64,000 nucleotides of DNA from Streptosporangiaceae bacterium (GTDB lineage: Bacteria; Actinomycetota; Actinomycetes; Streptosporangiales; Streptosporangiaceae). This document shows, in pieces, positions 5,194-53,547 of this stretch; the stretch's first letter is position 1, and every line of letters begins with the position of its first letter. The notes beneath the pieces were generated by a model. The model saw only the letters and a list, made by a program, of their open reading frames with translations, was not told where the DNA came from and made no database searches. The translations under genes were made by a program, and so were the position numbers. The DNA lies in NCBI GenBank assembly GCA_025934375.1, contig JAICYD010000015.1, forward strand, positions 15,073-79,072, given 5' to 3'.

Positions 5194-5796
5194 CTACCCG
5201 GCTAGCCACGCGACGGCCGCCGCGACTGACGCGAAGGTGCCGGTGACGGGACCCTGGGCCACGCTCACCGACCCCTTGGCGACCTGGATGGCACGGGTGC
5301 CGTCCTCGCGGGTCAGCCCGAGCCAGGCCGCGGCCGACTGCCGCTCATCCCCGTCGGCGGTGGTGAAGCCGTCGTTGAAGACGGCCTCGGCAAGCTGCGT
5401 CAGCGCCCACCACTGCCTGGCCGGCGGGTCGATGCGGAAGGCGTGCACCCCGGCCGGGGACACCAGCTGGCTCATCTCGATGTTCTCGGTCGTAGGCCCG
5501 TACAGGTAGATCGTCGGCCCCGCGGTCACCCAGGACCCGCCGGCATCGACCACGAGGAACATGGCACGCGGGCCGCCGCCCAGCCGCCCCACGACCTGGG
5601 CCGCGTCCCCCACCAGCAGGCCATCCTCGCTGGCCAGGCCGCGGACCACCATGGATCGCCGGCCGCGGATGATCGCCGGGACCACGCTGTCCTCATCGTC
5701 TTCGTCCACGGTGGGCAGCAGGGCGCTCCAGGCGCCCCCGGCGACAAGGGCGATAGCGGCGGCCTCGTCGTCGGTCAGCATCAATGTCTCAGTCAT
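5194..5796 (-). CDS. Hypothetical acidic cytoplasmic protein (candidate immunity or chaperone partner of the upstream WXG-fusion protein)
   Basis: 200-aa ORF with normal GC3-rich codon usage, 13 bp downstream of the 5810..6706 gene on the same strand. No signal peptide, TM segment or recognisable domain. Confidence 0.6.
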   Translation of the reverse strand: MTETLMLTDDEAAAIALVAGGAWSALLPTVDEDDEDSVVPAIIRGRRSMVVRGLASEDGLLVGDAAQVVGRLGGGPRAMFLVVDAGGSWVTAGPTIYLYGPTTENIEMSQLVSPAGVHAFRIDPPARQWWALTQLAEAVFNDGFTTADGDERQSAAAWLGLTREDGTRAIQVAKGSVSVAQGPVTGTFASVAAAVAWLAG

Positions 5797-5809
5797 CGTC
5801 GTCTCGTCG

Positions 5810-6706
5810 TCAGGGCAGCAGAATGTTCAGGACGTGGTGGGACATCTTGCCGGCCATGGACCCGAGGCCGGGCAGGATCCCCTGGTTCCAGTCGGTGTGC
5901 ATCCCGGTTTGGACGGCGTCGTCGGCAAGCGACAAGCCGACCCCGAACAGGTAGGTATCGGGAAAGCTCTTGAGGATCTTGGAGCTCTCGTCGACGGTGC
6001 CGAAGACGTCGCCGTGGTAGGCGTCACGGGCCGCGCGGACCCCGTCAACGCCGACGGCCAGGACCGTAAGGGGGCCGGTGACCTTCTCCGCTCCTTCAGC
6101 CACGCCGGGCAGGACATCATGACCCCACTGGGTGACCTTCCAGCTCTTGAAGTCCATCAGCTTCGACTCCGGATTTCCGCTCAGCTCCCGCCAGGCACCG
6201 CGCACTTGATCCCAGTTCTTGGTGTACCGGCCCGTCACCCACTTGTTGTCGCCGAGGGCTTTCATCGCCTCGCGCGGCTTCCAGGTGAGTGGCTCGAACC
6301 TGAGGGCACGCTTGTCAGCCGCGTCATAGCCGCCGACGACCTTGCTGGCCAGCGAGCCACCCAGCAGAGCCCCGCCGACCAGGCCCGTGGACACGCCGGC
6401 GGTGCCGCCTGCGCTGGTTCCCGCGTCGGCAGCGGCCGCCGCGCTGGCCTGCTGCTGCTCGCGGATGTTGACGGTGAGCCGGGCATGCATGTCGGAAAGC
6501 GCGTGCGCGGTCGCGGTGAGCGCGGGGCGATGCCGCCCCTCCCATTCCTGGTGGAAGGTCGCGGCGGCCGGTCCGCGCCAGTACAGCGAGAGCTGGGCAG
6601 CCAGGTCCGCGGCGGCGGCGGAAATCTGGGCCAGCGCCTGCGCATGGTAGCCGAGTTGCCGCCCCAGGCTCTGCGCCTGGTCAACGTCCATTCCCTCGAA
6701 GGCCAA
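5810..6706 (-). CDS. WXG100-domain fusion protein (candidate T7-like secreted polymorphic toxin)
   Basis: The N-terminal ~95 aa is a WXG100 helical hairpin (MAFEGMDVDQ...LSLYWRGPAAATFHQEW, W-R-G motif). It is followed by an Ala/Gly linker, a glycine-zipper segment (GLVGGALLGGSLASKVVGG) and a ~190-aa domain I cannot assign. TTG start at 6706, preceded by AGGAG. Confidence 0.75.
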   Translation of the reverse strand: MAFEGMDVDQAQSLGRQLGYHAQALAQISAAAADLAAQLSLYWRGPAAATFHQEWEGRHRPALTATAHALSDMHARLTVNIREQQQASAAAAADAGTSAGGTAGVSTGLVGGALLGGSLASKVVGGYDAADKRALRFEPLTWKPREAMKALGDNKWVTGRYTKNWDQVRGAWRELSGNPESKLMDFKSWKVTQWGHDVLPGVAEGAEKVTGPLTVLAVGVDGVRAARDAYHGDVFGTVDESSKILKSFPDTYLFGVGLSLADDAVQTGMHTDWNQGILPGLGSMAGKMSHHVLNILLP

Positions 6707-6745
6707 GGTGGCTCCTGTAGCTGCTTGTTTCCCTGCTCAACGCAC

Positions 6746-6778
6746 CCGGCTGGCTGCGGGTCGCCCCGTGCCAGCCGG
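6746..6778 (-). other. Intercistronic stem-loop between the WXG100 gene and the WXG-fusion gene
   Basis: CCGGCTGGC (6746-6754) pairs perfectly with GCCAGCCGG (6770-6778) around a 15-nt loop, inside the 89-bp gap between the two genes. Confidence 0.4.
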
Positions 6779-6795
6779 CCTGCGCTGCGCGCTAA

Positions 6796-7068
6796 TCAGT
6801 AGTTCTGCGAGGCGGCGACCTGCTCGTGCAGGTTCGCCTGGGTGTGATGGACCATCGTCTCCAGGCCGGCGAGCGCGCTGTTCAGCTGGGACTGGTGACT
6901 CGGCCACTCCGAGGCGAACCGCTGGGCGTCGGGGCCCTTCCAGGCGCCCTCCAGCGAGTTGACCACGCCTGGCATTGCCGCGACGACGCTCTGCAGCTGC
7001 TGCTGGAGGCTGGTCATGTGCTGCAGGACCTGGGTGACCTGGTCGACATCCATGCCTTCAAAGGCCAT
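6796..7068 (-). CDS. WXG100 family (ESAT-6-like) small secreted protein
   Basis: 90 aa with a central W-K-G motif (LEGAWKGPDAQRFASEW) and a helix-turn-helix length typical of the family. Strong RBS (AAGGAGG). Lies directly downstream of the FtsK-family ATPase. Confidence 0.85.
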   Translation of the reverse strand: MAFEGMDVDQVTQVLQHMTSLQQQLQSVVAAMPGVVNSLEGAWKGPDAQRFASEWPSHQSQLNSALAGLETMVHHTQANLHEQVAASQNY

Positions 7069-7125
7069 GGGGTTTCCTCCTTACGTGCGCGGCGGCCTGG
7101 TGCCGCCGGCGTCTGTGGGTGTGGC

Positions 7126-10100
7126 TCATTCGGGGATGGCTATCTGGGCGAGGCGCGCCCGGCCCGCTTCCACCAGCAGGCCGCGCCCGGGCGGGAACTC
7201 GCTGCGCCGTGACTTGGGGAACTCGGTCTTGAAGACCAGCGAGCCGTCGGCCGGCTCGGGCTGCAGCGCCAGGCCGGTGCGAGCGGACTTGACCGCGTTG
7301 AGCAGCGGCCAGCTCTGGCCCATCGCGGAGGTCTCTCCCTCGGCGATGACCAGGTGGCCGCCGCTGGCGAGCTTCTTGATCAGCGACCCCAGCGGCATGT
7401 CGGCCGGGGTGCCGAGGAATTCGTTGATGCCCTCGATGACCACGGCGAACGGCCGGCCGGAATCCCCGTCGCGGGTGATCTCCGCCTCCAGCTTGGCGGC
7501 CAGCTCGGCGGCCTCCTGCGGGTCGGTGGCGACCTGCTGCCAGGCGCCCAGTCCGATCAGCGGCGACCGCCGGCCGCCGAAGAACACCGGGACGGTCCGC
7601 GGCTGCGCCCGCGTCATCGCGATGACGACCGTCGCCACGGCGGTGGTGCGCCCGCTGGCCGGCGGCCCGCAGACCAGGAACACTCCCTCGGGCCGGAAGC
7701 CCGTCGCGGTCAGCGTGTCGTCGGCGATGCCGATGACCGGGCGCCCGTCCGCGGTGGCGGGCAGCTCGCTGAGCCGGACCAGCTCGGGCAGTTGCTCGAC
7801 CCGCGGCGCGGCCGCCAGCCCCCGCCGTCGCATCGCCCCGGCGAGCTGTGAGATGGCGCGGGCCTGCCCGATGTTGTCCGGTGCTCCGCCCAGCACCGCG
7901 ACCTGGAGCTCGGCGCCGCTGAGGACCGCGCGGCCAGCCGGAGCGTCGGGGCCGAGGATGCCGCGGCCGATGCCGGCCATCGCGTAGTCGTTCTCGTCGG
8001 CCAGCCGCATGATGAGGCGGCGCTGGATCGAGGAGGTGAGCCGGGCCGGCAGCGCCGACAGGCGGTCCGCGGTGACGATGACGTGGATGCCCAGGGGGCG
8101 CCCGTCGGCGGCCAGCGCGTTCAGCGCCTCGAACCACTTGCCGCCATCGAGCAGCTCGTACTGCTGCCGGAAGGCGGAGTAGCCGTCCAGGAGCACCAGG
8201 ATGCGTGGCTCGGCGGGCCGGCTGGCCAGCCGGCGGTAGTCGGTGATCGTTCCGGCGCGGACGCTGGCGAAGCGGCGGGCGCGATCGTCGGCGATGGCCA
8301 TCAGCGTGCGCAGCAGCCGGTTGATCCGGTCCCGTTCATCGGCGGCGATGATCGCGCCCACGTGCGGGAGCTCACCGAGCATGTCCAGGCCGCGGGAGCT
8401 GAAGTCGATGCCGTACACCTGGCAGGGGCCGCCGCGCACGGTGAAGCCGGCCGCGAGCGCCAGCGAGCGCAGCGCCGTTGACTTGCCGGCGCCCCCGGCC
8501 CCGATGATCGCCAGGTTCCCGTCCCGGTCCGGGTAGAACACCGAGGTCACCTGCCGCTGCCGGTCCGGCTCGTCGATCACGCCGAAGACAAGCTCGTCGT
8601 CACGTCGGCTGGAGGGCAGCCTGGCCAGGTCGTAGGCGGTCGCGAGCTCACTCAGCCACGGCCGGCGCGGGGCGGGCAGTTCGGCCTGCGCGGCCGCGCG
8701 CCGGATCGTGTCGGCAATCCGCTGGATATCTGTCGGACGCCGCGACGTCTGCGAGGCCGCGCCGCCGTCTTCGGGTGCCCGCCAGCGCTGGCCGGCGCCG
8801 ATGACGAGCTCCTCGATGGTCACGTCCGGGCGGCGGTGCCCGGTCGTCGTCCAGCCGCCGACGTACGCGGACTGGAACGGGACCAGGCGGCCGGGCCCGG
8901 TCTTGGAGACGGCCCGGCCGGGTAGCGCGGGGTCGATGTGCGCGGCCTCGGCCGAGCCGAGGACGTCGGAGCTGTCGGCCTCGTCGGCCACTCGCAGCGC
9001 GAGCCGCAGGTTCGTGTTCGCGCGCAGGTTGTCCTTGATCACCCCGGCCGGCCGCTGGGTGGCCAGGACGAGGTGCAGGCCGAGGGAGCGGCCGCGCTGG
9101 GCGACGTTGACGACGCCGTCGACGAAGTCGGGCACCTCCTGGATGAGCGCGGCGAACTCGTCGACCACGATCACCAGGCTGGGCGGGGTGTCCGGGTCAC
9201 CGGCCTTCTCCAGCTCGGGCAGGTCCTTGACCTTCTTGCGGGCGAACAGGTGCTCGCGGTAGGTGAGCTCGGCACCCAGCGAGACCAGCGCCCGGCGGAC
9301 CAGGTGCGGGCTGAGGTCGGTGACCAGGCCGACCGTGTGCGGCAGGTGGACGCAGTCGCGGAACGCCGACCCGCCCTTGTAGTCGACGAGCAGGAAGTTG
9401 ACCCGCTGCGGGCTGTGCGCCGCGGCCATGGCCAGGATCCAGGTCTGCAGCAGCTCGCTCTTGCCCGCGCCGGTGGTGCCGCCGAGCAGCGCGTGCGGGC
9501 CGTGCGCGCGCAGGTCCAGGGCGTGCGGGCCGGCGGCGGCGGCGCCGCCGCCGGCCCGCAGGCCCCCCGGCCGGCGCCGGCCGGCGGCCGGGGCGGCCGG
9601 GCCGGTGAGGATGGAGGTGGACTCCTGCCAGCGCTCGATCACCGCGGCGGGATCCTCGGCGAGCCGCGGGTCGGTCAGCTCCAGCCAGGAGACCGAGCGC
9701 GGCAGGTCGCTGTCATCGTCGAGTACCGCGCCCGCGTCGATCAGCGGGGACAGCAGCCGGCTGAACGACGTCGCGGTGGGCAAGTCGACCGCTTCGACGC
9801 CGACGTGCTGGGTGGTGATCCCTGTCAGGCCGTCAGCGATGACCGCGGTCCCGTCACCGCGGGCGTCGAGGTAGGCGGTGCAGGCGGCGGGCAGGTGCTC
9901 CGCGCGGGGGGCGACCCACAGGCAGTGGATGCCCGCCGCCGGGCCGACCCGGCTGAGCTCGACCAGGCGGGCGCGGTCAGCCTGGGCGCGGGCGTCGATC
10001 ATCACGACCACCGAGGCGCCGCCGGCACTGGCGGCGCCCGCCCCGCCCGGAGGAAGCGCCCGCGAGCGGGCCAGTTCCTCGAGCTGGCCGAGCAGCGCGG

Positions 10101-19100: not shown

Positions 19101-22100
19101 ACCGCGCGGACGATGACCCGTGCCTGCGAGGGGGCCGTGGAGCCGTCGGTGGCGCCGTAGGTGAGCTGGGCCGGGGGGTCGGCAGGGCTGGCGGGCGCCT
19201 TCAGGTAGACAAAGGACCCGTTGAGGCGGGCCCCAGGGGGCAGTGACTTGTTCGTCTGGTCCAGCGGGGCGACGGTGACCGGGTCGCCGGGGGCGATGAC
19301 GTCGTTGCCGAGGACGTCGACGTGGACGGTGGCGCCCGGCGGCGCGGACAGGACGTCGTCGACGGCGACCGGGGGCTGCGGCGGGCCGGGCGGCAGCACC
19401 GCGATGCTCACCTGCCCGGTCCCGGTCATCCCGTACGGGTCGGTCACCTGGTAGGTGAACGTGTCCGTCCCCGAGGAGGCGGGATAGGACTGGTAGCGGA
19501 TCGAGTTCGGGGTGACCGCCACGATGCGGCCCAGGGTCGGCGCGCCGGTGACGGCGGTGACGGTCGTCGAGTCGCCGTCGGGGTCGATGCCGTACGTCGG
19601 GATCTCGATGACCGCGACGTCCCCGGCCGTCTCGCGGGTCGTGACGGCCTGCGGGCTGGGTGCCTGGTCCGGGTTGGCCTTGGACGGGGGCGGTTCGACG
19701 GTGACGAACAGCTGGCCGGTCGCGGTGGTGCCGCTGGCGTCGGTCGCGACGTAGCTCACGGTCGTCTCCTGCTGGGTGGTGACGTTCGCCGGCGCGTCGA
19801 CCCGGACGGTGCCGCCCTGGTTGCTGGCGAACAGCCCCGCGATCGGCGGGGTGGCCTGCGGCGGGGTGGTGCCGAGGCTGAGCGCGAGCCCGGCCGAGCT
19901 GCTGTCGTTGGCCAGCACCGCGACGGCGGCGCTGTCGCCGGCCCTGATCGTGACGGAGGCGTCCTGCGTGGTGACCTGGTCGTCGCTGGTGGCCGGCTCG
20001 GCGGTGATGCTCACCGTCCCGGTCGCCGTGGCGTACCCGTTGCTGACGATGTAACTGGCGGTGCTCGCCGAGCCTGGCACCGGGTTGTCGGCGCTGATCC
20101 GCAGCCAGTGCTGGCTGACGACCGCGACGTGGATGCCGGCGTCGGTGGAGCTGGCGCTGGTGACGCCGAGGACGTAACCCTGCGGGTCGTAGTCGTTGGC
20201 CAGCACGTCCACCAGGGCGGGCTGCTGGCCGTGCAGGACCGCCAGGTCCGGGACCGGCACCGGCGGCTTGGGGGTGCCCGGCTTCGGGCTGGCCTGCACG
20301 CGGATCGTCCCGGTGGACGGGACGGTCGCGCCGAAGGCGGCCTGGTAGGTCAGGAAGTACGCGCCCGGCTGCTTGGCGGTGAAGGTGACCGTCCCGGCGT
20401 GCACGTCGGTGCTGACGGTCGCGCCCGCCGCCTGGGTCACCAGCCGGGCCGGGCCGGCGATGGTCAGGTGCGCCTGCGGGTCCGTCGGGTCGGCACCCGG
20501 GGTGTCGTTGCCGAGCGGCTTGATGGTGGCTGGCATGCCGACGATGGCCTGGGCGACGTCTGGCTCCGCCTTCGGCGACACCAGGTGCGTGCTCGTGGTG
20601 GCCAGCACGGTGACGGTGAGCGGCTTGCCCGGTTGCGGCGTGGCGGAGATGCCGTCGGTGACCGCGTAGTGGATGGTCGCGGCGCCGGTAGAGGTGACCT
20701 GGGGGGCGGTGTAGGAAATCGCTCCGCCGCTGGCGATGCCGACAGTGCCGCCGCCGCCGGCGCCGGTCACGGAGAGCGTCTGGCCGCTGGGGTCGCTGTT
20801 GTCATCGACGTACAGCGGGTCGCCGTCAGGGTCGCGCCAGTCGCCGACGACCGCGATGATCAGGTGCCCCCCGGAGGCGACGCTGAGGTCGGGGAGGTCG
20901 TAGTTGTCGCGCAGGCGCGGCGGGGAGTTCTCGCCGGCCTGCCGGGGCTGCAGGGTGACCTGCGCTGAGGCCGTGTGGCCCTTCCCGTCGTCGATGGTGT
21001 ACTCGAAGTGCGCGTTCGTGGTTAGCCCGGGCCCGACGGTAGCGAGCACGGTCTGTCCGTCGGGCGCGACGGCGACGCTGACCTGCGACTGATCCGGCGG
21101 TCCGACCTTGACCACGGCGAGCACGGCGCCCAGCGGCCCGCTGTCGTTGTCGAGCACGTGGACCACCGTGGTGCGTCCGGGGCGGACGCCCTGCGTGTCC
21201 GGCTTGGCCTGGAGCGGCGTGGCCTCCGGGCTGGCGATGGGACTGTTGCTGTCCTTGTTGTCCCGCTTGATGAACTGCTGCCACTGCGGCTGGATCCGGA
21301 TGACCTTGGAGTCAAGCAGGAAGACGTCGCCGTTGGCCGTGTCGTTCAGCACCACCTGGTTGTGGTTGACGCGGAAGACCAGGTCCGGGTTGTCCGAGCC
21401 GACGAGGAACGGCGCCACCATGGCCGGCGTCCCGGCGCAGGCCCGGACGTAGGTGGCACTCCCCCCGTTGGCCCAGGCGGCGTGCGCGCAGCCGCTGACC
21501 TGAACCGGGGCGGTCGCTGTGCCGGTGCGCCCGGAAGTGACCGTGTTCCACGTGCCGTTGGCCAGGTTGATCTGGTACAGCGCCGTTGAGGTGGCGGCGT
21601 AGGCGTACGGGCTGGCCGCGGAGGACTGCTGCAGGGCCAGGCCGGCCGGGCTGGGCAGCGGCGAGACGGGGCGGTTGCTGGCCGGCAGGTAGATCTTCCC
21701 GCTGGTGATGTCGGCGACGACGGGGACGTCCCCGATCGTCGTGACCTGAAGCTGGTCGCCACCGGGGAGGTTCAGGCTGGTGGCTTGCGCTTTGCCCCAG
21801 CTGGTGCCGTCGGCGGCGGCGGGGTATCGGCGCAGCAGCCCCCCGCCAGCGACGAGGATGTCGCTGTCACTGTCGACCGCGACGGCCGCGTTGCCGGGGA
21901 GCGTCGCCTTGTCCAGTGGCGTGGAACTAGCCGCGACGGACTGGACGCTCGCGCCGGGCGCCGTCATCGGCGCCGCGCGGAGCTTGTGGTCGGCGCCGAT
22001 GACGGCGAACGCGGCGCCGTTGAGCGCGGCCTGGGCATTGGAGGTGATCGGCGCCTGCGTGCCGTCGTCGGTGAACGCCGTCGTGGCCGGGTTGACGGAG

Positions 22101-22390
22101 TACACTTTTCCGCCGCTGTAGGTGGCGACCAGGCCGCCCGCCTGCCACACGTTCATGTCCCCGGCCGCGGTGGCCGGGACAATCGCGCCGTCCACCTGGT
22201 CGATCGGCTTGTTGAAGCGGCCGATCTGCCCGTCCGCCTTATCGGTGACCCACACGCCGCCGTCGTTGAGGCTCAGGTGCTGGACGGGGAAGCCCTGCGA
22301 GCGTGAGGCCAGCGCCGCCAGCGTGACCATGGCGACGCACAGCACTATGGGCGTGCCCAGGCGACCTGGGCGCGTGAATACGCGGCGCAC
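16139..22390 (-). CDS. Giant secreted or surface protein with Ig/cadherin-like repeats and five FN3 domains
   Basis: 2083 aa, GTG start, N-terminal signal or anchor (IVLCVAMVTLAALASRSQG).
- Repeated beta-sandwich modules carry VLxNDxDP-type motifs (VLDNDSGPLG, PLGNDTPGADP, VLANDYDPQG, VLGNDVIAPGDP, VLKNDDDPVG).
- About five FN3-like modules follow (e.g. VTLTWPAAPDGGSPVQQY, ITVSWAAGQDNGNAITGY).
- The C-terminus is a Cys-containing beta-sandwich. Confidence 0.85.
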   Translation of the reverse strand: MRRVFTRPGRLGTPIVLCVAMVTLAALASRSQGFPVQHLSLNDGGVWVTDKADGQIGRFNKPIDQVDGAIVPATAAGDMNVWQAGGLVATYSGGKVYSVNPATTAFTDDGTQAPITSNAQAALNGAAFAVIGADHKLRAAPMTAPGASVQSVAASSTPLDKATLPGNAAVAVDSDSDILVAGGGLLRRYPAAADGTSWGKAQATSLNLPGGDQLQVTTIGDVPVVADITSGKIYLPASNRPVSPLPSPAGLALQQSSAASPYAYAATSTALYQINLANGTWNTVTSGRTGTATAPVQVSGCAHAAWANGGSATYVRACAGTPAMVAPFLVGSDNPDLVFRVNHNQVVLNDTANGDVFLLDSKVIRIQPQWQQFIKRDNKDSNSPIASPEATPLQAKPDTQGVRPGRTTVVHVLDNDSGPLGAVLAVVKVGPPDQSQVSVAVAPDGQTVLATVGPGLTTNAHFEYTIDDGKGHTASAQVTLQPRQAGENSPPRLRDNYDLPDLSVASGGHLIIAVVGDWRDPDGDPLYVDDNSDPSGQTLSVTGAGGGGTVGIASGGAISYTAPQVTSTGAATIHYAVTDGISATPQPGKPLTVTVLATTSTHLVSPKAEPDVAQAIVGMPATIKPLGNDTPGADPTDPQAHLTIAGPARLVTQAAGATVSTDVHAGTVTFTAKQPGAYFLTYQAAFGATVPSTGTIRVQASPKPGTPKPPVPVPDLAVLHGQQPALVDVLANDYDPQGYVLGVTSASSTDAGIHVAVVSQHWLRISADNPVPGSASTASYIVSNGYATATGTVSITAEPATSDDQVTTQDASVTIRAGDSAAVAVLANDSSSAGLALSLGTTPPQATPPIAGLFASNQGGTVRVDAPANVTTQQETTVSYVATDASGTTATGQLFVTVEPPPSKANPDQAPSPQAVTTRETAGDVAVIEIPTYGIDPDGDSTTVTAVTGAPTLGRIVAVTPNSIRYQSYPASSGTDTFTYQVTDPYGMTGTGQVSIAVLPPGPPQPPVAVDDVLSAPPGATVHVDVLGNDVIAPGDPVTVAPLDQTNKSLPPGARLNGSFVYLKAPASPADPPAQLTYGATDGSTAPSQARVIVRAVTGAKLAPIANDDIATPASPSAATVTVNVLKNDDDPVGSASDLKLSWAPAGVTKQGPSLVIPVKANPREVPYQVTAPDGLTATAVVFVPGTATSAIRLKEGARITLPPRGSVTVPLASVLTDSFGRPLRITTTDQLISSPAGNITVTTHQDTSFQVQAQGTYAGPGAVSVQVYDGSTIQDPKGHVATLTIPVQVGVDTPVLRCPSGNGNALQVVEGGASATYNISLLCHVWTDTTIATAAPRYAAGGWTTPVTGVTATIVGNGTGLRLLAASSAKAGDRGTLRITADGAAASSGGLLSVTVVAAPPPSGRAVSLATNAGQPAFADLAQYVSSPLPQPAISIPDAPKVARASVTVSGSRLTVTPEPSFHGTLQFVVTVADEPGRVDRQIQLAVSVSVIARPGAPGPPSAKTSSHTAQVFFSPAAPNGAPVQLYTVFTDRQGHQCAASPCTISGLANGHSYDVYVTATNSAGQGAASLHGTAKPDEVPSQITGLNTTPGDQQVTLTWPAAPDGGSPVQQYLAEVSPAPASGASLQKLAPSARSVTFTGLTNGTSYSFRVQASNSLGPGPWSAAVPMTPYGKPLTMGAPTATGAAVPNPATTRAITVSWAAGQDNGNAITGYTVTPYSSGSSGGPWTAGTPAAVGGGTTSTSFTVTNDGTYYEYTVTATNAAGDSTPSPQSSPPVQGIAPPDAPATPSAADHDASTGKGYDGAIQVTFTAPNGNGGSITSVEYGLNGQSTSGTWNGPFTAGASVTQTASGLANGSNYVVYVRGCNSLACGPWSSASNQVTPYGAPGAPTNVTAASSGTTISYSWGGGAGNGRPLDHYIYCIDGANCQNSTGTTASGSYGYSSSHNVTVYAVDSAGQQSAGATSNTATTAAPPSPTVSISRGPNEPTATCTSGSGCSAVHVIGNNFTPGATLTYTCSDNHGGTWWTDTRAWGGALVKADGSGHTDFETNCVWGNNNWSLSNWTLTINVSDGSKSASGSYTG

Positions 22391-22609
22391 AGCTTGCTTA
22401 AACCCCCTGCCGGTCTGGCGATGCCAGCAGCCTCCTCAGCGAATAGTAGAGATCGCCCGGCAGGCAGGCTCGGGAAAGCGCTCATCGGGTAGCGAACGTT
22501 AGAAAAATGGGTTATCGCTGGTCAGCCGCCGCGTGTTCAAGGGCGGATTTTCTACGCCGATCGCCAAGGGTGACGGGCAAGCCACCATAGGGTCACTGAT
22601 CGAAGCTCA

Positions 22610-24469
22610 TTAGCCACAGGCAGCGCTTGAATACGGGGAGGACTGCCCGGTGCCCGCGCGCACCACACGTACCTGGATGCACACTCGCCCCGGGCCGGAT
22701 GCCGGAAGGGAGATCGGCTCGCGCGCGACGGTCCGCGGCGAGCCGGCGTCTCCGGCGCGCTTCCACTGAAAGGAGTCTCCCGTCCGGGCATTAGCGTAGG
22801 TCCACGAAAAGTGGACCTCGCCGCCGCTCACCGTCGGGGTGGCTATCGTCGGCGTCCCTGGCGGGGCACCACCGGGACCGATCGCGCTTTGGTCGGCGCC
22901 GTTGCCGAGTGCGGTGGTCGCCGGAGCCTGCGGCGGCCCGCCGCCCGCGGCGCCGTGCAGCGCCACCGCTGCGCCGACGGCGGCGACCGCCGCGACCAGC
23001 ACGCCGCCGATCACCAGGCCAGCGCGCCGCCGGGGGCCGGGCGAGACGGTCTCGTCCTCCAAGCCGGCCACGGCCGGCGGCCCCGTCCTCAAGGGCCGTC
23101 CGGGGGTGAAGCCCGGGCTGGACGTTCCGCCGAGCAAGCGCGCGTCTCCCCGCCGCATCGTGGTGTCCGGTTCGCCGGGCAGCGGCGGCAGCACCCGCTC
23201 GCGGGCCGGCGGGGGCGACCCGAAGGCGCCTTCATCCCAAGGGGCGACGCGCCGCGGGCTGCGCTGCCGGGTCACGTCGTCATCAGACGGCCGGGACGGC
23301 GGGCCAGGGAACGGCTCCTGGTACACCTCCCGGCGGGAATCGGCGAAGCCCTGGGGGTCCAGCACGCGCGGGCCACGCTGCCGGGTGACATCGTCATTCC
23401 CGCCGCGAAGCGGCCAGCCGTCGGGGTTAGCAGTGCCGGGGTTGACTGGGCCGGGGTTGACTGGGCCGGGGTCCCAGGGGCTGGGTCGCTGACCCCGCCT
23501 GGCCACGGTGGCGTCCCCGAAGCGGGCGCCATCCCCGGGCCGGGCCGGGAAGCCGTACCCGGGAGTGTGCGGCCCGGGGCCGCCGGCCTGCGGGGGGTCA
23601 TCGTCGGGGACGATCACCTGCGTGTGCGGCAGGTGCAGTTCCTGCTCGATCGCCTGGAGCTCACGGGCCAGGTCAAGCGCGCGCTGCGGGCGCGCGTCGG
23701 GGTTCTTCGCCAGCGCCTGGCGCAACAGCCGCTCCAGGCTGTCGGGGACGTCGGCTCGCCCGGTGCGCGGCGGGCTATCGGCCTGGACGCGGCGCATCAA
23801 GGCGAACGCCGTGTTGTCCCCGCCCGGCACCTCATACGGTGACCGGCCGGCCAGCAGGTGCCACAGGGTCGCGCCGAGCGAGTACACGTCAGAGCGCTCA
23901 TCGCCATCGGAGGTGCCGAACAGCACCTCCGGCGGCGACCACGGCACCGACATCCCCTCGGCCCCGCCGGCGCCCTTGGCGCTCGCGATGCCGAAGTCGG
24001 TCAGCGCCGGGGTGCCGAACTTGCCGGTCAGGATGTTGTGCGGCTTGATGTCCCGGTGCAGGATCCCGCCCCGGTGACTCGTCTCCACCGCGCCGGCGAT
24101 CTGCACGCCGACCTTCAGCACCTCGGAGACGGGGAAATGGCCGCGCCGCGCCCGCACCCCCAGGTTGGGCTGGGAGTAATACTGCATGACCAGGTACGGG
24201 CGGCCATCGGGCGCGATGTCGGCGGTGAACACCGACGCGATGTTCGGGTGATCGGCCAGCCCCGCCATGGCGTTCGCCTCGGCGGTGAACTGGCGGGCGA
24301 CCGCGTCGGTCAGCCCCGCCTCGTTGAGCACCTTCACCGCGACCTCGCGCTTGGGCCGCTGCTGCTCATACAGGAAGACCTCGGCGTTCCCGCCCGAGCC
24401 GATGTGGTGCAGGTACCGGTAGCCCGGCAGCTCAGGCGGCGGCTGCTTACGGGGTGGTCCGGCGCTCAT
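22610..24469 (-). CDS. Membrane Ser/Thr protein kinase with an FN3-like ectodomain
   Basis: Hanks kinase motifs are intact (GSGGNAEV, VAVKVL, HRDIKPHNIL, DFGIA, SPPE). A Pro-rich linker, one TM helix (LVIGGVLVAAVAAVGAAVAL) and a ~90-aa beta-rich C-terminus follow. Confidence 0.9.
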   Translation of the reverse strand: MSAGPPRKQPPPELPGYRYLHHIGSGGNAEVFLYEQQRPKREVAVKVLNEAGLTDAVARQFTAEANAMAGLADHPNIASVFTADIAPDGRPYLVMQYYSQPNLGVRARRGHFPVSEVLKVGVQIAGAVETSHRGGILHRDIKPHNILTGKFGTPALTDFGIASAKGAGGAEGMSVPWSPPEVLFGTSDGDERSDVYSLGATLWHLLAGRSPYEVPGGDNTAFALMRRVQADSPPRTGRADVPDSLERLLRQALAKNPDARPQRALDLARELQAIEQELHLPHTQVIVPDDDPPQAGGPGPHTPGYGFPARPGDGARFGDATVARRGQRPSPWDPGPVNPGPVNPGTANPDGWPLRGGNDDVTRQRGPRVLDPQGFADSRREVYQEPFPGPPSRPSDDDVTRQRSPRRVAPWDEGAFGSPPPARERVLPPLPGEPDTTMRRGDARLLGGTSSPGFTPGRPLRTGPPAVAGLEDETVSPGPRRRAGLVIGGVLVAAVAAVGAAVALHGAAGGGPPQAPATTALGNGADQSAIGPGGAPPGTPTIATPTVSGGEVHFSWTYANARTGDSFQWKRAGDAGSPRTVAREPISLPASGPGRVCIQVRVVRAGTGQSSPYSSAACG

Positions 24470-26112
24470 CCGGCGACCTCAAAGCGGAAGTAAATCCCAT
24501 CGGCCAGGGTCACCACGGTTGCGTTGGGGATGAGGACGGGCTCTTTGGGCCTGAGCCGCTCGGGCGGCCGGCCCGGGAACTCCACCAGCGTCCCGTTGGT
24601 GGACTCCAGGTCCGTCAGGAGCACGTGCCAGCCATCGAGGGTAATGGTGAGGTGGGTCCGGGAGATCTCGCCGTCGCCGCTGGGCAGCTTGACCACGTGC
24701 GGACGCTCGTCCCCGTTCAGCTCCGAGCGCGGGTTGCGGCCCATGACGACGCTGCGGTCCAACGTGATCACGTCACCGGTGGACAACCGCAGCAAGCCGA
24801 GCGCCGGGCGGGATACCAGGACCGGCTCTTGCGGTGGCAGGGGCTCGCCGCAAACCCGGCAGGCGACGCTGTTCGGCGGGCTGACATGCCCGGCCAGGCA
24901 GAGCAGGCCCTGCACGATCGGGCCGATGCGGTCGACGAGCGCCGGGACGGGGACGGCCTGGGCCAGGCTGGCGCGCCGGATGGTGTTGGTGTTCTCCGGG
25001 TTGCCTGGATCGGGCGGGGTCCCGTTGGCGCTGCCGGGGAAGGGCTCACCGCCGGGAAGGGGGCCGCTCGCGGGGAAGCTCCCGGGCGGGAGGGGCGGCG
25101 GGACCGTGATGGTGGAGATCAGCGCGCGCGGCGGGAGCGTCGCGGTCGGGTCCAGGGGCGCGGCCGGCTGGGCAGGCAGAGACGCTGGCAGGGGCGGTGG
25201 GGCGCTTTCCCAGGGGACGCGGTCGATCATGCCGCCGCCCCCGGGGCCGTCTAGCGGGACGGGCGCCGCCGGAGGGGGCGGGGCGGAAGGGGCGAGCGGC
25301 CATTCGGCGGGAGGGGCGCTTTCCGGGCCTAGGGTCCCCGGGACCGGGCCTCCCAGGACCGGGCCTGCCGGCAAAGGACTCGCCGGTACAGGGCTTCCCA
25401 GGATCTGGGCGTGCGGTTCGGGCGGCGACCCGAAGCCGGGAAACGAGGACCCGCCGGGGAAGGAGAAAAGGGAGTCGCCCCCGCTGTCGGGCCGGATCGC
25501 GGCATCCTCAACCGAGCGCATCTGAGTCGCCTCGAAGAGGAAGTCGTAACCGGGGTCACCAGCCTCGTCGCCGGCGGGGAGCACGGGAGCGGGAGCGGGA
25601 GCGGGCCAGCCGGGAGCGGGAGCGGTGACGGGCATCGGGCGAGACTGCTGGCCCGCGCCCGACAGGTCCACGATCACGGAGCTGGCCAGGAAGATCCCGG
25701 CGGACGCCGGCAGCCGCAATGAGCTCTCTGTGGCCGGCTCGCCGATCACCACGCACGTGACGCCGGCCGGCATCGGGTAATCAAGCCAGGTCGCCAGCCC
25801 GGCCCCGGTAACGCGCTGCGCGCTGCCGTCGAGGTCCTCCACGACGGCGCCGCCGCTGCCCCGGCAGATCAGGTGCCGCCGCCCGTCACCACCGCAGGCC
25901 AGCAGGGCGAAGTCCGGCATGTGCGCGAACCCGAACTGCAAGACCCCGGCGAACAGCTCTTCCAGCCGTGCTTGCGGCATTGGCCCGGCCAGGCCCATCC
26001 GCCGCCAGATCTCGGCGACGACCGCCGAATCCGGCGAGGCGTCGATCAGCACCCAGCACGAATCGCCAGCGATCGCGGTGCGGCCACCCGGTACGTAGCT
26101 GACGTCAGCCAT
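24466..26112 (-). CDS. FHA-domain protein with zinc-ribbon and an unassigned N-terminal domain
   Basis: C-terminal FHA (VVMGRNP...GEISRTHLTITLDGWHVLLTDLESTNGTLV), preceded by a CxxH...CxxC ribbon (CLAGHVSPPNSVACRVCGEPL) and a long Pro-rich linker. The start is set at ATG 26112 (MADVSYVPGG...). The longer ORF to 26385 runs inside the PP2C gene. Confidence 0.8.
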   Translation of the reverse strand: MADVSYVPGGRTAIAGDSCWVLIDASPDSAVVAEIWRRMGLAGPMPQARLEELFAGVLQFGFAHMPDFALLACGGDGRRHLICRGSGGAVVEDLDGSAQRVTGAGLATWLDYPMPAGVTCVVIGEPATESSLRLPASAGIFLASSVIVDLSGAGQQSRPMPVTAPAPGWPAPAPAPVLPAGDEAGDPGYDFLFEATQMRSVEDAAIRPDSGGDSLFSFPGGSSFPGFGSPPEPHAQILGSPVPASPLPAGPVLGGPVPGTLGPESAPPAEWPLAPSAPPPPAAPVPLDGPGGGGMIDRVPWESAPPPLPASLPAQPAAPLDPTATLPPRALISTITVPPPLPPGSFPASGPLPGGEPFPGSANGTPPDPGNPENTNTIRRASLAQAVPVPALVDRIGPIVQGLLCLAGHVSPPNSVACRVCGEPLPPQEPVLVSRPALGLLRLSTGDVITLDRSVVMGRNPRSELNGDERPHVVKLPSGDGEISRTHLTITLDGWHVLLTDLESTNGTLVEFPGRPPERLRPKEPVLIPNATVVTLADGIYFRFEVAG

Positions 26113-26926
26113 TGCCAGGCTGGCCGGGCAGCTCACCTCGTGGCAGCGTCGTGACGTCCACGCGGGTTTCGTCCAGGGCCCCGCCGGAGCCACCCAGGTC
26201 GCCGAAGCCGACGACCTCGGCCACGATGACGGTGACGTTGTCGTGGCCGCCGGCGTCCTCAGCGGCGGCGACCAGCGCGGTGGCCGCCACCTGCGGGCTG
26301 CCGGAGGCGAGGAGCACCGCGATCCGCTCGTCGGGGACCTCGGTGTACAGACCGTCGGAGCACACCAGGAACCGGTCCCCGGCATTCGCGGGCAGCAGCC
26401 AGTAGTCGGGCCGGGGGCCCGGGTCGGTGCCCAGCGCGCGGGTCACGATGTTGCGCCGTGGGTGGACGCGCGCCTGGTCGCGGGTGATCACGCCAGCCAG
26501 GACCAGTTCCTGGACCTCGGAATGGTCCACGGTGACCTGGTCAAGCCGCCCCTCGACGAGCCGGTAGACCCGGGAGTCGCCGACGTTGAAGACCATGAGG
26601 TGGTCACCGCCGCCGGTCTCCAGCAGGGCCAGCCCGGTGATCGTGGTGCCCATGCCCTTGGCGCCCTCGTACGTGACGATGGCGCGGTTGGCGGCATCCA
26701 GGGCGGCGAGCACTCCATCGGCGGTCAGCGGCCGGACCCGGGCCGCGGAGGTCAGCGTGTCGATGGCGAGCCTGCTCGCCAGGTCCCCCGCGCCATGGCC
26801 GCCCATGCCATCTGCCACCGCGAACAGCGGCGGTATGGCCAGATAGCTGTCCTCGTTCACCCGGCGGACCCGGCCCGGGGATGTCGCCGCGCTATGCCAG
26901 AACCGGGTCATGGGGTGGCAGCGCAC
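26105..26926 (-). CDS. PP2C-family Ser/Thr phosphatase
   Basis: GRVRRVNEDS...FAVADGMGGHGAG...GTTITGL...NVGDSRVY...LVCSDGL...DNVTVIV are the canonical PPM motifs. Confidence 0.9.
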   Translation of the reverse strand: MRCHPMTRFWHSAATSPGRVRRVNEDSYLAIPPLFAVADGMGGHGAGDLASRLAIDTLTSAARVRPLTADGVLAALDAANRAIVTYEGAKGMGTTITGLALLETGGGDHLMVFNVGDSRVYRLVEGRLDQVTVDHSEVQELVLAGVITRDQARVHPRRNIVTRALGTDPGPRPDYWLLPANAGDRFLVCSDGLYTEVPDERIAVLLASGSPQVAATALVAAAEDAGGHDNVTVIVAEVVGFGDLGGSGGALDETRVDVTTLPRGELPGQPGNG

Positions 26927-33456: not shown

Positions 33457-36400
33457 ATGTCCCCTATGACTGGACGCGTTATCGCGGGACGTTACCGCCT
33501 CGCTGAGCCGATTGGCCGCGGGGCGATGGGTGTTGTCTGGCGCGCCAAGGACCAGCTCCTTGACCGGGATGTCGCGATCAAGGAAGTCCGCTTCAACGAG
33601 GCACTCGGCGAAGTCGAGCGGTCCAACGCCTACAAGCGGACCCTTCGCGAGGCCCGGACCGCGGCGCGCCTCAGTCACCGGGGCGTGGTCACCGTCTTCG
33701 ACGTGGCCGAGGAAGACGGGCGGCCGTGGATCGTCATGGAGCTCATCCGCTCCCGGTCGCTGGATGAGCTGCTGGCCACCGACGGACCGATGCCGCCCGG
33801 GCGCGTGGCCAGGATCGCCCAGCAACTGCTATCCGCGCTGGCGCACGCGCACTCGGCGGGGGTGCTGCACCGGGACGTCAAGCCGAGCAACGTGCTGATC
33901 GCGACGGGCGGGCTCGACGAGCGCGCGGTGCTCACCGACTTTGGCATCGCCCAGTTCGAGGGCGACCCGCGGCTGACCCAGACGGGCATGGTCATGGGGT
34001 CGCCGGGCTTCACGGCGCCGGAGCGGATCCGGGGCGGGGACGCGACGCCCGCCTCTGACCTGTGGTCGCTCGGCGCGACGATCTACGCGGCCAGCGAGGG
34101 CCGGGGGCCTTACGAGCAGCGCGGCGGCGCGATCACCACGATGACCGCGATCATCAACGAGGACGCGCCGGTCGCGCCGTCGGCCGACCGGCTCCAGCCC
34201 GTCATCGCGACGCTGTTGCGGCGCGACCCGATGCGCCGGCCGCCGGCCGCGGTCGCCGCGAGCATGATCGCCGAGGTGCTGCCGTTGCTGCCGGAGACCC
34301 GGGGCGGCCGTGGCGGCACGGTGCTCTCGCAGTCGCCAGGCTCCGCGCGGCGGTCGCCGCTGGCTGGCCCGGTGCCACCTCCGGCGCCGTCGACGCCGGC
34401 CCGGGGGCAGGGGGCCGGATCGGTGCCGCCGCCGGCGCCTTCTGGCGTCGCCGCGACGGGGATCGACCCGCCGGCGCCCAAGGCCGCCGCGGCGAGGGCC
34501 GCGGAGGCAGCGAAGGCGGCCGAGGCCGCCAAGGCGGCGAAGTCCGACGGGGCAGGGGAAGGGGCAGGGGCAGCAGCGGCGGCGGGCGGGGCCGCGGGGG
34601 TTGCGGCGCCTAAGGGAACTGCGGAGGCCAAGGGATCTGCCGGGGCCGCGGCGAAGGTGGATGCCGCGCCGTCGGGGACGCCGGATGCTGCGGACGCGAT
34701 CGTTTCGCAGGCGGCCGGCGCTGAGGACGCGGGCGCGGCTTCGGGATCGGGATCGGCTTCGGGTCCTGACTCGGTTGAGGAGGCGCCCGACGCGGCCCTC
34801 GATGAGGCAGGGTCGCCTGAGGCTGCGCTGTCCGAGGCAGTGCCGGAGAAGGCAGGGTCGGCCAAGGAAGCGCCGGAAAAAGGGGTGCCAGATAAGGCGG
34901 GGTCGGCTAAGGAAGCGGCCCTGGCGCAGGCCGTTGCCTCCGACGGTAGCTCCGCGGGCGAGCCGGAACTCGAGCCCACGGCGCGGGGCATCCCGGTGGC
35001 CCGCGTGCCTGTCCCGGCGAAGCCGACGCCCGATAAGGCGGTTCCCGGCCAGGCGGACGCGGGCGAGTCGGGCGCCGCCCCGGCGGCCGCCAGCAGCGCG
35101 GCTGCCGGGTCAAGCGACACCGACCAGTATGCGAAGACGTCACTGACGAATTCCGGCGCGATCTTGGCGGCGGCCGAGAGCAGGAGCGCCGCCGCCGCGA
35201 GCAGTCCTGCGGGAAATGCCGCGGGAAGCGGCGCGGCGGGCCACGAGGTGACCGTGAAGGCGAGCACCGCCGCCCCGGCCAGTGCCACGCCCTCGGGATC
35301 GGCGGCTCCCGAGCCCACGGTCAAGGTGAGCACTCCGTCCACGCCCAGCGCCACCGTGAAGGCAACCACCCCGCAGGCACCTCCCGCGCCGAAGCCTGCC
35401 CCGCCGCAGCCCGCGCCGCCGCAGCCGTCTGAGAAGGACGCCTGGTGGTCCAACGCCTACCAGACGCAGGGTCCCTCGTTCTCACCGTCGCAGAACAAGC
35501 CCGCGACCCCGCACACCCCCGCACAGCCTGGCCCTGCTTCGCCCTTCTCGCAGCCAACGCACTACGCGCCGCCGGGGCGGTACACCTCGCCAGGGCGCCC
35601 GCCCGGGCCGGCCACCACCCCGCACTCGCCGCAAAACTACAACTACCAGTATCCGGCGGGCTCCAACCCGGACGGCAGCGGCGGCCGGGTCGAGTCCACC
35701 TCGCCTCCCCGTAAGGGCAGCGCCGGGAAGAAGATCCTCCTCGGCGTCCTCGCGGTGATCGTGGTCGCGGCGGTCGTCGTTGCGGCGACGCTCCTCGGCA
35801 AGCGCCACGCGTCCACGCCGAACGCGGCGAACTCATCGACGCCAGCCGGATCCAATGGCCCGTCGACCTCGGCCAGCGCAGCGGCGGGCGGCCCGGTCCC
35901 GCCGGTCACGCGGGACACGCCCACGGTCGTGCGGGCTATCGATGACCACAGCGACACGGTGCCGGCCGGCTACACGCCTTACACGCTGCACCCTTCCTCC
36001 GCTGGGACGACGGCCGGCTTCGAGCTCGACGTCCCGCCCGGATGGCAGGTTGAGCAGCAGACGCCCCAGCGGATCTTCTTCAACGCGCCGGACGGCCTTA
36101 GCAACGTTGAGGTTGACCTCACCCCGCACACCAGGCCGGACATGGTCGCCGAGGCGCAGTTCCTGAAGCAGCAGACCGTCAGCCAGGGCAAGTTCTCGCA
36201 GTACAAGGAGCTCGAGCTCGGCCCCGAGAACGTCCTCGGCACGCGGGGCGCGCTGTGGCGGTTCGACTGGACGAACCCGAAGACCGGCAGGCAGATGCGC
36301 GTGGACGACATGCTGTTCGTCTTGCAGACGCCGAACGGCCCGCAGTCCTACGCTATCTTCATGACCGCGCCGGACGGGAAAGCGGCCGGCAGCTGGAATG

Positions 36401-53361: not shown

Positions 53362-53547
53362 AGATGGCACCTCACTGTGCTGGCGGTCCCAGGTCGTGCA
53401 AGGGTTCCCAGCTCGGAAACTAGACCAACCGCGGGCGCGTGAGAAGACTAGCCTTTGAACTAAGCCGTAAAAAAACCGTGAAAGCTTTGACGCCCGACGG
53501 CCTCGGGGGCGCGTCGCCGACGGCTTTAGGGGCACTGCCGCGCCGGA

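Follow-up and report, generated by a model that had tools for sequence, protein, structure and literature searches.

A putative Esr-type envelope-sensing module coupled to an EssC-type ATPase and WXG100 substrates in an uncultured Streptosporangiaceae bacterium

The closest described relatives of the gene cluster that we analyze here are the PFNA operon of bifidobacteria (PMC8430577), the actinobacterial class T7SSd of the type VII secretion systems (T7SS) (PMC11217815), and the Esr pathway with its link to Esx secretion (PMC13622651). The cluster occupies positions 5194 to 26926 of a 64-kb stretch of high-GC DNA (∼70%) from a Streptosporangiaceae bacterium (64,000 nucleotides of contig JAICYD010000015.1, hereafter the window). 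Its genes encode, in order of transcription, a PP2C phosphatase, an FHA/zinc-ribbon protein, a membrane Ser/Thr kinase, a giant Ig/FN3 surface protein, a MoxR ATPase, a DUF58 protein, a polytopic transglutaminase (TGase)-like protein, an EssC-type ATPase, a WXG100 protein, a WXG100-fusion protein, and a small acidic protein. A first-pass annotation of the sequence had taken this composition to be undescribed, but the three studies just cited already cover it; the locus is a new example of an arrangement found in papers from 2018 to 2021, 2024, and September 2026, and not a new kind of system.

The Bifidobacterium PFNA operon (pkb2-fn3-aaa_atp-duf58-tgm plus prpC, a hypothetical gene, and fha) is co-transcribed and was found in 71 of 86 species (PMC8430577). 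Its gene set is that of the non-secretion part of the cluster, and by domain order it matches the window in the succession of kinase, FN3, MoxR, DUF58, and transglutaminase genes in one direction; it likewise has accessory PP2C and FHA genes, and in both cases the kinase and surface proteins diverge quickly (PMC8430577). The differences are that PFNA is described without FtsK/EssC or WXG100 genes and has been read as a system for sensing host cytokines, that its FN3 protein is much smaller, and that its PP2C and FHA genes lie downstream, whereas those of the window lie upstream (PMC8430577).

Garrett, Higginson and Palmer defined classes T7SSc to T7SSj in 2024; among these, T7SSd (Olsenella, Bifidobacterium) combines a WXG100 protein, an ATPase with a phospho-threonine-competent FHA domain, an active kinase in the membrane, a small protein with a single helix, and a large Ig-domain protein exported by Sec (PMC11217815). 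The same study reported that phospho-threonine motifs are conserved in FHA-bearing type VII ATPases that co-occur with kinases, and it already proposed that the kinase corresponds to EssB and that the Ig protein is “akin to EsaA” (PMC11217815). The working hypothesis of the first-pass annotation, which drew the same two analogies, is therefore essentially theirs. With T7SSd the window shares the WXG100 protein, an EssC-like rather than EccC-like ATPase (its FHA domain keeps the GR, SxxH, and NG motifs, although its likeness to TsdC is equivocal), an active single-pass kinase of the TsdD type, a large Sec-exported Ig protein, and, among the ∼41 window ORFs scanned (ORF, open reading frame), the lack of T7SSa and T7SSb membrane components. 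It differs in that no small single-helix protein of the TsdH kind was found in the cluster, where the gaps are at most 89 bp except for one ORF-less 219 bp, and no such family emerged from clustering of the related loci; in that the T7SSd protein TsdI has a C-terminal transmembrane helix, which the giant protein of the window lacks, while the N-terminal propeller of the latter is not reported for TsdI; and in that the T7SSd component list includes no MoxR, DUF58, TGase, or PP2C protein and no FHA protein of its own (PMC11217815).

Wang et al. (bioRxiv, 9 September 2026) described Esr (epibiont sensing and response), a pathway linked to Esx secretion, whose parts are EsrA (a signal, Ig repeats, and a terminal beta-propeller), MoxR, a vWA protein, the transglutaminase EsrD, the kinase EsrE, the phosphatase EsrF, and the FHA output protein EsrG (PMC13622651). 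The preprint counts 3,502 Esr loci, effectively confined to the class Actinomycetes; 40% of them lie immediately beside esx genes, and some encode EsrG-EccC fusions (PMC13622651). When Schaalia odontolytica senses a Saccharibacteria epibiont, EsrG is phosphorylated on threonine in an EsrA-dependent manner; in the same species, deletion of esrD releases EsrA into the medium, and deletion of the Esx-adjacent esrA2 stops the export of AesA and AesB but spares that of EsxA and EsxB (PMC13622651). The window has the component list of the Schaalia Esr2 cluster, including an FHA output protein with a disordered region (in the window, the zinc-finger variant), and it adjoins an EccC/EssC ATPase and WXG100 genes as Esr-Esx loci do; the FHA domain fused to its ATPase parallels the EsrG-EccC fusions, and its effector is likewise variable with a helical N terminus. 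Unlike the Esr-Esx systems described, it has an extra N-terminal ubiquitin-like domain on the ATPase, a TGase-like protein without the catalytic Cys, a DUF58 protein without a metal ion-dependent adhesion site (MIDAS), and, instead of the AesA/AesB pair, an effector in which a WXG100 region is fused to an orphan C-terminal domain. Its host also differs, being an uncultured environmental actinomycete whose nearest relatives include Trebonia-like metagenome-assembled genomes (MAGs) and which falls outside the orders where Esr is reported to be common. The Cys-less TGase, the MIDAS-less DUF58 protein, the fused ubiquitin-like domain, and the near-orphan effector domain do not appear to be described in the cited papers.

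The MoxR-vWA ternary conflict systems combine MoxR and vWA proteins with a fast-diversifying sensor and signaling or effector outputs (Kaur, Burroughs, Iyer and Aravind 2020, PMC7159879). Wang et al. state that the 2020 survey did not detect the Esr class (PMC13622651). The MoxR protein of the window scores above threshold on the bpMoxR model of MoxR-vWA-beta-propeller systems. In contrast to the ternary systems, the vWA protein is here a membrane DUF58 protein without fused effectors, the propeller is extracellular and sits on the separate giant protein, and the output would be secretion.

Set against these systems, the locus most likely represents an Esr-type module for envelope threat sensing and phospho-threonine signaling, to which an EssC-type (Esx) ATPase and its substrates are coupled. 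The proposal that the cluster is a functional unit and a non-canonical type VII locus is thus partly supported: the unit stands, while the structural roles proposed for its parts are not favored. Domain calls were made by Pfam and NCBIfam profile searches of the locus proteins, and these confirmed every domain that had been named for the cluster from the sequence alone. The ORF listing likewise bears out the eleven minus-strand genes with the coordinates, overlaps, and gaps given before. The ATG of the FHA gene at 26112 overlaps the stop codon of the PP2C gene (ATGGCTGA), and the ORF coordinates show 4-base overlaps between the FHA and kinase genes (24466/24469), the DUF58 and TGase genes (13934/13937), and the TGase and ATPase genes (11529/11532). 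Downstream of the ATPase gene, gaps of 57 and 89 bp flank the small WXG100 gene, and the other intergenic gaps measure 9 to 13 bp, apart from a single gap of 219 bp.

We located homologs of all window proteins in 69 loci with relatives of the ATPase, taking one genome per species; loci were counted as related at an ATPase identity of 41% or more, given at least 4.4 kb of upstream sequence. The MoxR-DUF58-TGase triad stands co-directional, in the same order, and upstream of the ATPase gene in 24 of these 32 loci, which represent at least 12 genera, against 1 of 23 distant EccC-type loci (Streptomyces, Mycobacterium, and Corynebacterium; Fisher p = 8e-8, uncorrected for phylogeny). Triad-positive loci come from Janibacter, Marihabitans, Pedococcus, Segeticoccus, Microbacterium, Pseudolysinimonas, Nakamurella, Propioniciclava, Acidiferrimicrobium, and several MAGs, and the PP2C, FHA protein, and kinase genes are also present in them where the flank reaches far enough. 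Fortuitous adjacency had been named as the outcome that would dissolve the proposed unit; the neighborhood survey shows instead that the unit is conserved beyond chance. The locus of Acidiferrimicrobium sp. (L003; class Acidimicrobiia) has the giant gene, MoxR, DUF58, TGase-like, and essC genes in the same order as the window, demonstrating that the class extends beyond the taxa reported so far, while that of Candidatus Microthrix (L038) has the ATPase and a weak FHA match only, with no triad.

The ATPase (1,468 amino acids [aa], 7126 to 11532) is of the EssC type, with FtsK_SpoIIIE (7e-53) and FHA matches. It consists of a ubiquitin-like domain (residues 1 to 81), an FHA domain (residues 93 to 187), two transmembrane helices (residues 237 to 279), a D0 domain, and three FtsK-like domains. 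Against the NCBIfam models it scored 506 bits on T7_EssCb_Firm (cutoff, 778), 359 on EccCa (509), and 322 on EccCb (347); its best match is thus to the Bacillota EssC model, yet it falls under all three type VII ATPase equivalog cutoffs. Domain D1 has 27% identity to EccC, 37% to TsdC, 45% to Staphylococcus aureus EssC, and 46% to TsjC in a crude, indicative comparison with a published alignment recovered by optical character recognition. The protein had been described as a triple P-loop ATPase; three FtsK-like domains are indeed present, but the Walker A motif is canonical in only two of them (GTTGAGKS at 685 in D1 and GAGGAGKS at 1011 in D2) and degenerate in D3 (GPPASGRT at 1289).

The N-terminal beta-grasp domain (residues 1 to 81, 11290 to 11532) resembles YukD and EsaB. 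A profile built from 18 homologs of this region matches a redesigned ubiquitin (E = 4.5e-4) and also SAMP1, 5 of the 18 members have weak Pfam YukD matches, and AlphaFold2 (AF2) predicts a beta-beta-alpha-beta-beta-beta topology for these residues with a mean predicted local distance difference test score (pLDDT) of ∼85 (82 for the model). The beta-grasp call made in the first-pass annotation is supported by this profile match and topology, and the domain is kept in all 18 aligned ATPase homologs. Foldseek hits to the two-domain N-terminal model were dominated by FHA matches, so that the beta-grasp domain received no fold match of its own from this search. The FHA domain (residues 93 to 187, 10972 to 11256) is predicted to be competent for phospho-threonine binding: all 18 homologs share residues G119, R120, S134, H137, N156, and G157, and its closest folds are those of the phospho-threonine-binding proteins GarA, OdhI, and FhaA (30 to 32% identity; root mean square deviation, 1.4 to 1.6 Å). 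A profile search with the ATPase N terminus returned mostly short unrelated FHA proteins and no named ATPases of Schaalia, Olsenella, or Bifidobacterium; it revealed no taxonomic spread and was used solely as a source of sequences for the structural alignment.

In its two transmembrane helices, D0, three FtsK-like domains, and WXG100 substrates, this ATPase system resembles both T7SSa and T7SSb, and with T7SSb it further shares a ubiquitin-like module and an N-terminal FHA region. The T7SSa EccC has no FHA domain, however, and T7SSb has a free EsaB/YukD protein and tandem FHA domains that have lost the phospho-threonine pocket, whereas in the window the ubiquitin-like domain is fused and the single FHA domain keeps the pocket. 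T7SSd is reported without a ubiquitin-like (TsxB) component. The N terminus of TsdC from Olsenella uli aligns with the tandem FHA region of EssC, while that of the window ATPase is a beta-grasp plus one FHA domain, so the window ATPase is probably not simply a TsdC. The ATPase's own ubiquitin-like and FHA domains offer a concrete, mutable site for work on the gating of type VII machines by kinase signaling.

The upstream end of the cluster encodes the phospho-threonine relay. The PP2C-type Ser/Thr phosphatase (EsrF-like, 273 aa, 26105 to 26926) matches PP2C_2 (3.1e-11) and Stp1_PP2C_phos (1.6e-59) and binds metal, to judge by its motifs, through DGMGG (residue 39) and GGHDN (residue 226). The EsrG-like FHA output protein (548 aa, 24466 to 26112) has a Pro-rich stretch at residues 150 to 400, a zinc ribbon (CxxxH...CxxC) at C405, H409, C418, and C421, and an FHA domain (3e-8) at residues 440 to 548 with the phospho-threonine motifs GR458, SRTH484, and NG506. 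The membrane Ser/Thr kinase (EsrE/TsdD/Pkb2-like, 619 aa, 22610 to 24469; Pkinase, 9.2e-35) has its kinase domain at residues 17 to 283, followed by a disordered linker, one transmembrane helix (residues 481 to 510), and an external domain of ∼110 aa. Its catalytic motifs are intact (VAVK43, HRD138, and DFG158), which would fit a signaling role. An active membrane kinase in the place of the EssB pseudokinase had been proposed for this gene; the motifs bear out an intact catalytic site, unlike that of EssB, although scaffolding of the EssB kind is still conceivable. As a separate observation, the N-terminal domain of the FHA output protein has no similarity to Pfam, the PDB, or the locus PP2C, and the idea that it is a pseudophosphatase gained no support from these comparisons, the homologs being too few for a profile.

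The EsrA-like giant surface protein (2,083 aa, 16139 to 22390) contains six Big_9 domains, three fn3 domains, and cadherin-like domains by Pfam. A hydrophobicity scan places a signal peptide or signal anchor at residues 9 to 31; a propeller, Big_9/cadherin Ig repeats (residues ∼400 to 1500), fn3 repeats (∼1500 to 1960), and a Cys-containing C-terminal domain follow in this order, and transmembrane and motif scans found neither a C-terminal transmembrane helix nor an LPXTG motif. Residues 35 to 400 have no Pfam match. An AF2 model of residues 1 to 384, built with 22 homologs, is all-beta (pLDDT, 82.6; predicted template modeling score, 0.80), and the PDB matches that Foldseek listed for it are overwhelmingly beta-propellers (BamB, WIPI/Atg18, EMC1, and NirF; E values of 1e-7 to 1e-5); we regard residues 46 to 366 (21293 to 22255) as a putative ligand-sensing beta-propeller head. 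The Janibacter gene at the equivalent position (L006, 3740 to 5158) encodes a protein of 472 aa with one transmembrane helix and a weak PQQ_2/BamB propeller only, which makes the propeller the conserved part of the giant protein and the stalk optional. This stalk-less form is too short to cross the cell wall and so argues against a wall-spanning conduit. The giant protein had been suggested to act as an EsaA-like element or to be itself cargo, and that suggestion does not hold up well: given the Sec signal, the propeller, the Janibacter form, and the Schaalia esrA2 deletion without effect on EsxA/EsxB export (PMC13622651), it behaves as a sensor and not as a conduit or type VII cargo.

Between the giant gene and the ATPase gene lies the triad. 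The MoxR-family AAA+ ATPase (330 aa, 15134 to 16126) matches AAA_3 (6.9e-63), AAA_lid_2, and bpMoxR (45 bits; cutoff, 27), has both Walker A (GTGKT) and Walker B (VLADEINR) motifs, and is 61 to 77% identical to its homologs in related loci. The DUF58 protein (396 aa, 13934 to 15124; DUF58, 3e-9), which we take to have a vWA-like fold in line with the established Pfam classification, has an N-terminal transmembrane hairpin (residues 37 to 72). The DxSxS MIDAS motif is absent from it (VVDGATASY at residues ∼244 to 253) and from 25 homologs, suggesting a role independent of metal binding.

The polytopic TGase-like membrane protein (EsrD/TgpA/Tgm-like, 802 aa, 11529 to 13937) matches Transglut_core (1.6e-13) and TgpA_N, and a transmembrane scan predicts about seven N-terminal helices, an external domain at residues ∼270 to 640, one further helix, and a cytoplasmic tail. 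At the position of the nucleophile it has D528 (GDDEQYA in place of the canonical GxCxx[FY]A), and its sole Cys, C715, belongs to the cytoplasmic tail. All 26 locus homologs and 22 of 23 further database homologs (L002-L042, P0151-P0177) likewise have no Cys in the motif, which reads G[DNST]xEQ[YF]A; one canonical GHCEYFA, in the most distant match, served as a positive control for the motif search. Across the family the histidine is mostly kept and the aspartate mostly lost. The TGase-like protein of this clade thus lacks the means for canonical Cys chemistry, and covalent anchoring of the sensor by it is doubtful; non-covalent docking would explain the published release of EsrA in the esrD mutant equally well. 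By their motifs, both the TGase-like and the DUF58 proteins look non-enzymatic.

We propose a scheme that joins the domain content, intact catalytic and phospho-threonine residues, topology, and gene linkage observed at this locus with two findings, sensor-dependent threonine phosphorylation of an FHA protein and sensor-dependent export of a subset of Esx substrates, which were made in S. odontolytica and not in this organism and extend to it by analogy. The 2,083-aa protein would be exported by Sec and show its beta-propeller head on an Ig/FN3 stalk, with the external, Cys-less TGase-like domain possibly holding it at the membrane. Following the published Esr model, ligand binding might then pass via the membrane DUF58 protein and the MoxR ATPase to the single-pass kinase, which would phosphorylate threonines of disordered segments such as those of the zinc-ribbon/FHA protein, with PP2C resetting the system. 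FHA domains, including that at the N terminus of the ATPase, would read the phospho-threonine, so that assembly or gating of the EssC hexamer may be switched post-translationally. Cargo of the ATPase would be the 90-aa WXG100 protein together with the 298-aa WXG100-fusion effector, for which the 200-aa protein presumably serves as partner. Read in this way, the locus is an environmental, non-oral addition to a class that has newly been linked by experiment to defense against epibiotic Patescibacteria.

Several points weigh against this Esr-type interpretation. Membership in the Esr-Esx class rests on architecture and not on a sequence comparison with the S. odontolytica proteins, and the biological trigger in this uncultured organism may be epibionts or something different. 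The published covalent anchoring may not apply here, the TGase-like protein having no catalytic Cys and the DUF58 protein no MIDAS. The 4-base overlap of the TGase and EssC genes would also suit stoichiometric co-assembly, and no channel-forming partner of the ATPase was found nearby, which keeps some weight on a structural role for the polytopic proteins.

These last points bear on an alternative in which the cluster encodes a new type VII apparatus, with the TGase-like and DUF58 proteins in place of EccD and EccB, the kinase in place of EssB, the giant protein as an EsaA-like conduit, and MoxR as a chaperone. As the first-pass annotation had stated, no T7SSa or T7SSb membrane gene lies nearby: EccB, EccD, EccE, MycP, EssA, EssB, and EsaA were not found among the ∼41 ORFs scanned, a part of those in the 64 kb, nor were Ecc/Ess membrane genes found within ±10 kb of ∼30 related ATPase genes. 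Clustering all ORFs of 43 loci brought up no hidden conserved membrane component either, only housekeeping neighbors (genes for inositol-phosphate synthase, a penicillin-binding protein [PBP], ssb, and ribosomal proteins). In the window the TGase gene overlaps the EssC gene and is translationally coupled to it, and in most loci the two are neighbors; a dead TGase-like protein and a MIDAS-less DUF58 protein resemble scaffolds more than enzymes, and the analogies are those already proposed for T7SSd (PMC11217815). Against such an apparatus stand two paralogous EssC loci on a single MAG contig (L001 and L027, CAVPIM010000017.1, ∼65 kb apart), whose ATPases are 70% identical to that of the window and in whose ±10 kb flanks the MoxR, DUF58, TGase, and giant genes were not found. 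The triad is therefore probably regulatory and not translocon, its proteins being unlikely obligate parts of the machine, and the suggestion that MoxR and DUF58 act as assembly chaperones is not favored. The triad was likewise not found in the flanks of L020, L028, L036, and L037, the order of the TGase and essC genes is not fixed (it differs in L023, L025, and L040), the stalk-less Janibacter propeller could not span the wall, the kinase is catalytically intact unlike EssB, and loss of esrA2 in Schaalia leaves EsxA/EsxB export untouched (PMC13622651). Separable modules, variable order, an optional stalk, and the Schaalia genetics favor a sensory or regulatory role for the MoxR, DUF58, TGase, and giant genes, and we judge the new-apparatus explanation improbable.

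A related and similarly doubtful idea is that in this clade, without T7SSa/T7SSb membrane partners, the Cys-less TgpA-like protein and DUF58 make up a non-enzymatic platform that both docks the sensor and forms part of the EssC translocon, with the fused ubiquitin-like domain replacing those of EsaB and EccD. If true, this would be a separate, minimal form of T7SS that uses the same hardware for sensing and for translocation.

Less probable still is an output that is mainly transcriptional, in which the zinc-ribbon/FHA protein would regulate genes elsewhere, as in Esr1, and the adjacent type VII genes would be one member of its regulon. The EsrG-like protein does carry a zinc ribbon, the preprint suggests that zinc-finger EsrG variants may act on transcription (PMC13622651), and a conserved ∼240-aa FHA-like protein with a basic C-terminal domain is encoded in many related loci. 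The FHA domain fused to the ATPase points instead to direct post-translational control, which is how the Esx-adjacent Esr2 of Schaalia acts (PMC13622651), and the two modes are compatible and not mutually exclusive. The weakest alternative, a PFNA-like surface-sensing operon and a minimal type VII secretion cassette as uncoupled neighbors, appeals to the occurrence of each module alone (Bifidobacterium PFNA clusters described without type VII genes [PMC8430577], the 60% of Esr loci that are not beside esx genes [PMC13622651], and the EssC genes of L001 and L027 without the triad), and it is made very unlikely by a linkage that holds in 24 of 32 loci and spans several orders and two classes, by stop/start overlaps that run across the whole block, by the phospho-threonine-competent FHA domain fused to the ATPase, by the kinase, PP2C, and FHA genes that accompany EssC even without the triad, and by the published genetic link in Schaalia (PMC13622651).

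In the coupling that we favor, the cargo would be encoded at the downstream end of the cluster. The EsxA-like WXG100 protein (90 aa, 6796 to 7068) has WKG at residue 43, scores 29.1 bits on WXG100 (cutoff, 27.3) and 30.7 bits on TIGR03930, and matches EsxB in the PDB with E values down to ∼0.006. The candidate type VII effector (298 aa, 5810 to 6706) consists of a WXG100-like N terminus (weak match, 17.6 bits), a Gly/Ala linker, and a 174-aa C-terminal domain (5813 to 6334). The two WXG proteins are paralogs, with 34% identity over 83 residues and identical first ten residues. The C-terminal domain has no Pfam, NCBIfam, or PDB match and has one true relative among 1.84 billion cluster representatives (42% identity, same 298-aa architecture). 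The effector is the least conserved gene product of the locus (31% identity in L018 versus 54 to 77% for the machinery), a divergence of the kind to be expected if it is arms-race cargo. An identical 298-aa protein is encoded on 2- to 4-kb Logan metagenome contigs from SRR22941848, SRR22941849, SRR28085312, and SRR28085314, indicating an uncultured environmental source.

The 200-aa acidic protein (5194 to 5796) has no Pfam, NCBIfam, or PDB match. Its gene always comes after the effector gene and accompanies it in L001, L027, and L070-L073; from this gene position the protein is a candidate immunity protein or export chaperone. A relationship to the ∼240-aa FHA-like family was considered and rejected (hhalign probability, 18%).

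The 219-bp gap between the kinase and giant genes (22391 to 22609) is the only sizeable one in the block and a possible internal promoter region, which would divide the phospho-relay genes from the sensor and secretion genes. A promoter and terminator scan found no sigma-70-like consensus or terminator in it, the scan of the whole locus being uninformative.

Several related loci show other gene combinations. The paralogous loci L001 and L027 keep the PP2C, FHA/zinc-ribbon, ∼240-aa FHA-like, EssC, WXG100, effector, and 200-aa genes, and downstream they have a gene for a fusion of two FHA domains to an ATP-binding cassette (ABC) transporter (778 aa) and a kinase gene. In L001, the presence of upstream transposase genes (DDE_5, HTH) suggests that the secretion cassette is mobile and duplicating. 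The locus of Buchananella hordeovulneris (Actinomycetaceae; L037, 3524 to 9983), the closest stand-in for the S. odontolytica proteins, encodes an ATPase that is 43% identical to that of the window and of the same beta-grasp, FHA, and EssC type; in place of the triad, this locus has a divergent operon with genes for a Ser/Thr kinase, a periplasmic-binding-protein-like protein, and a 1,043-aa helical protein, which is a different sensory front end.

The ∼240-aa FHA-like protein mentioned above is cytoplasmic, has a degenerate FHA-like N terminus and a basic C-terminal domain that may bind DNA, and has no Pfam match. It shows 52 to 57% identity across orders, above that of the ATPase itself. In nine related loci (among them L001, 8941 to 9675; L027, 8979 to 9695; L025, 9252 to 10004; L028, 8904 to 9653; L002, 4390 to 5085; and L006, 3016 to 3732) its gene either immediately precedes essC or immediately follows the kinase gene; it is missing from the window.

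The cluster is flanked by housekeeping genes, with xseA, glpX, a DUF1707 protein gene, and a PGA_cap protein gene on one side and genes for a major facilitator superfamily (MFS) transporter, an ABC transporter, a hydrolase, fumarase, and a second kinase on the other. About 20 ORFs scanned between 36 and 64 kb, a part of those present there, are metabolic, regulatory, or without a family match. Two minus-strand ORFs, of 700 aa (51433 to 53535) and 369 aa (57517 to 58626), have no Pfam family and show a strong coding-type bias in GC content at third codon positions. The second Ser/Thr kinase gene (1,000 aa, 33457 to 36459, plus strand) is the next gene after that for class I fumarase and lies at a distance of ∼6.5 kb from the locus.

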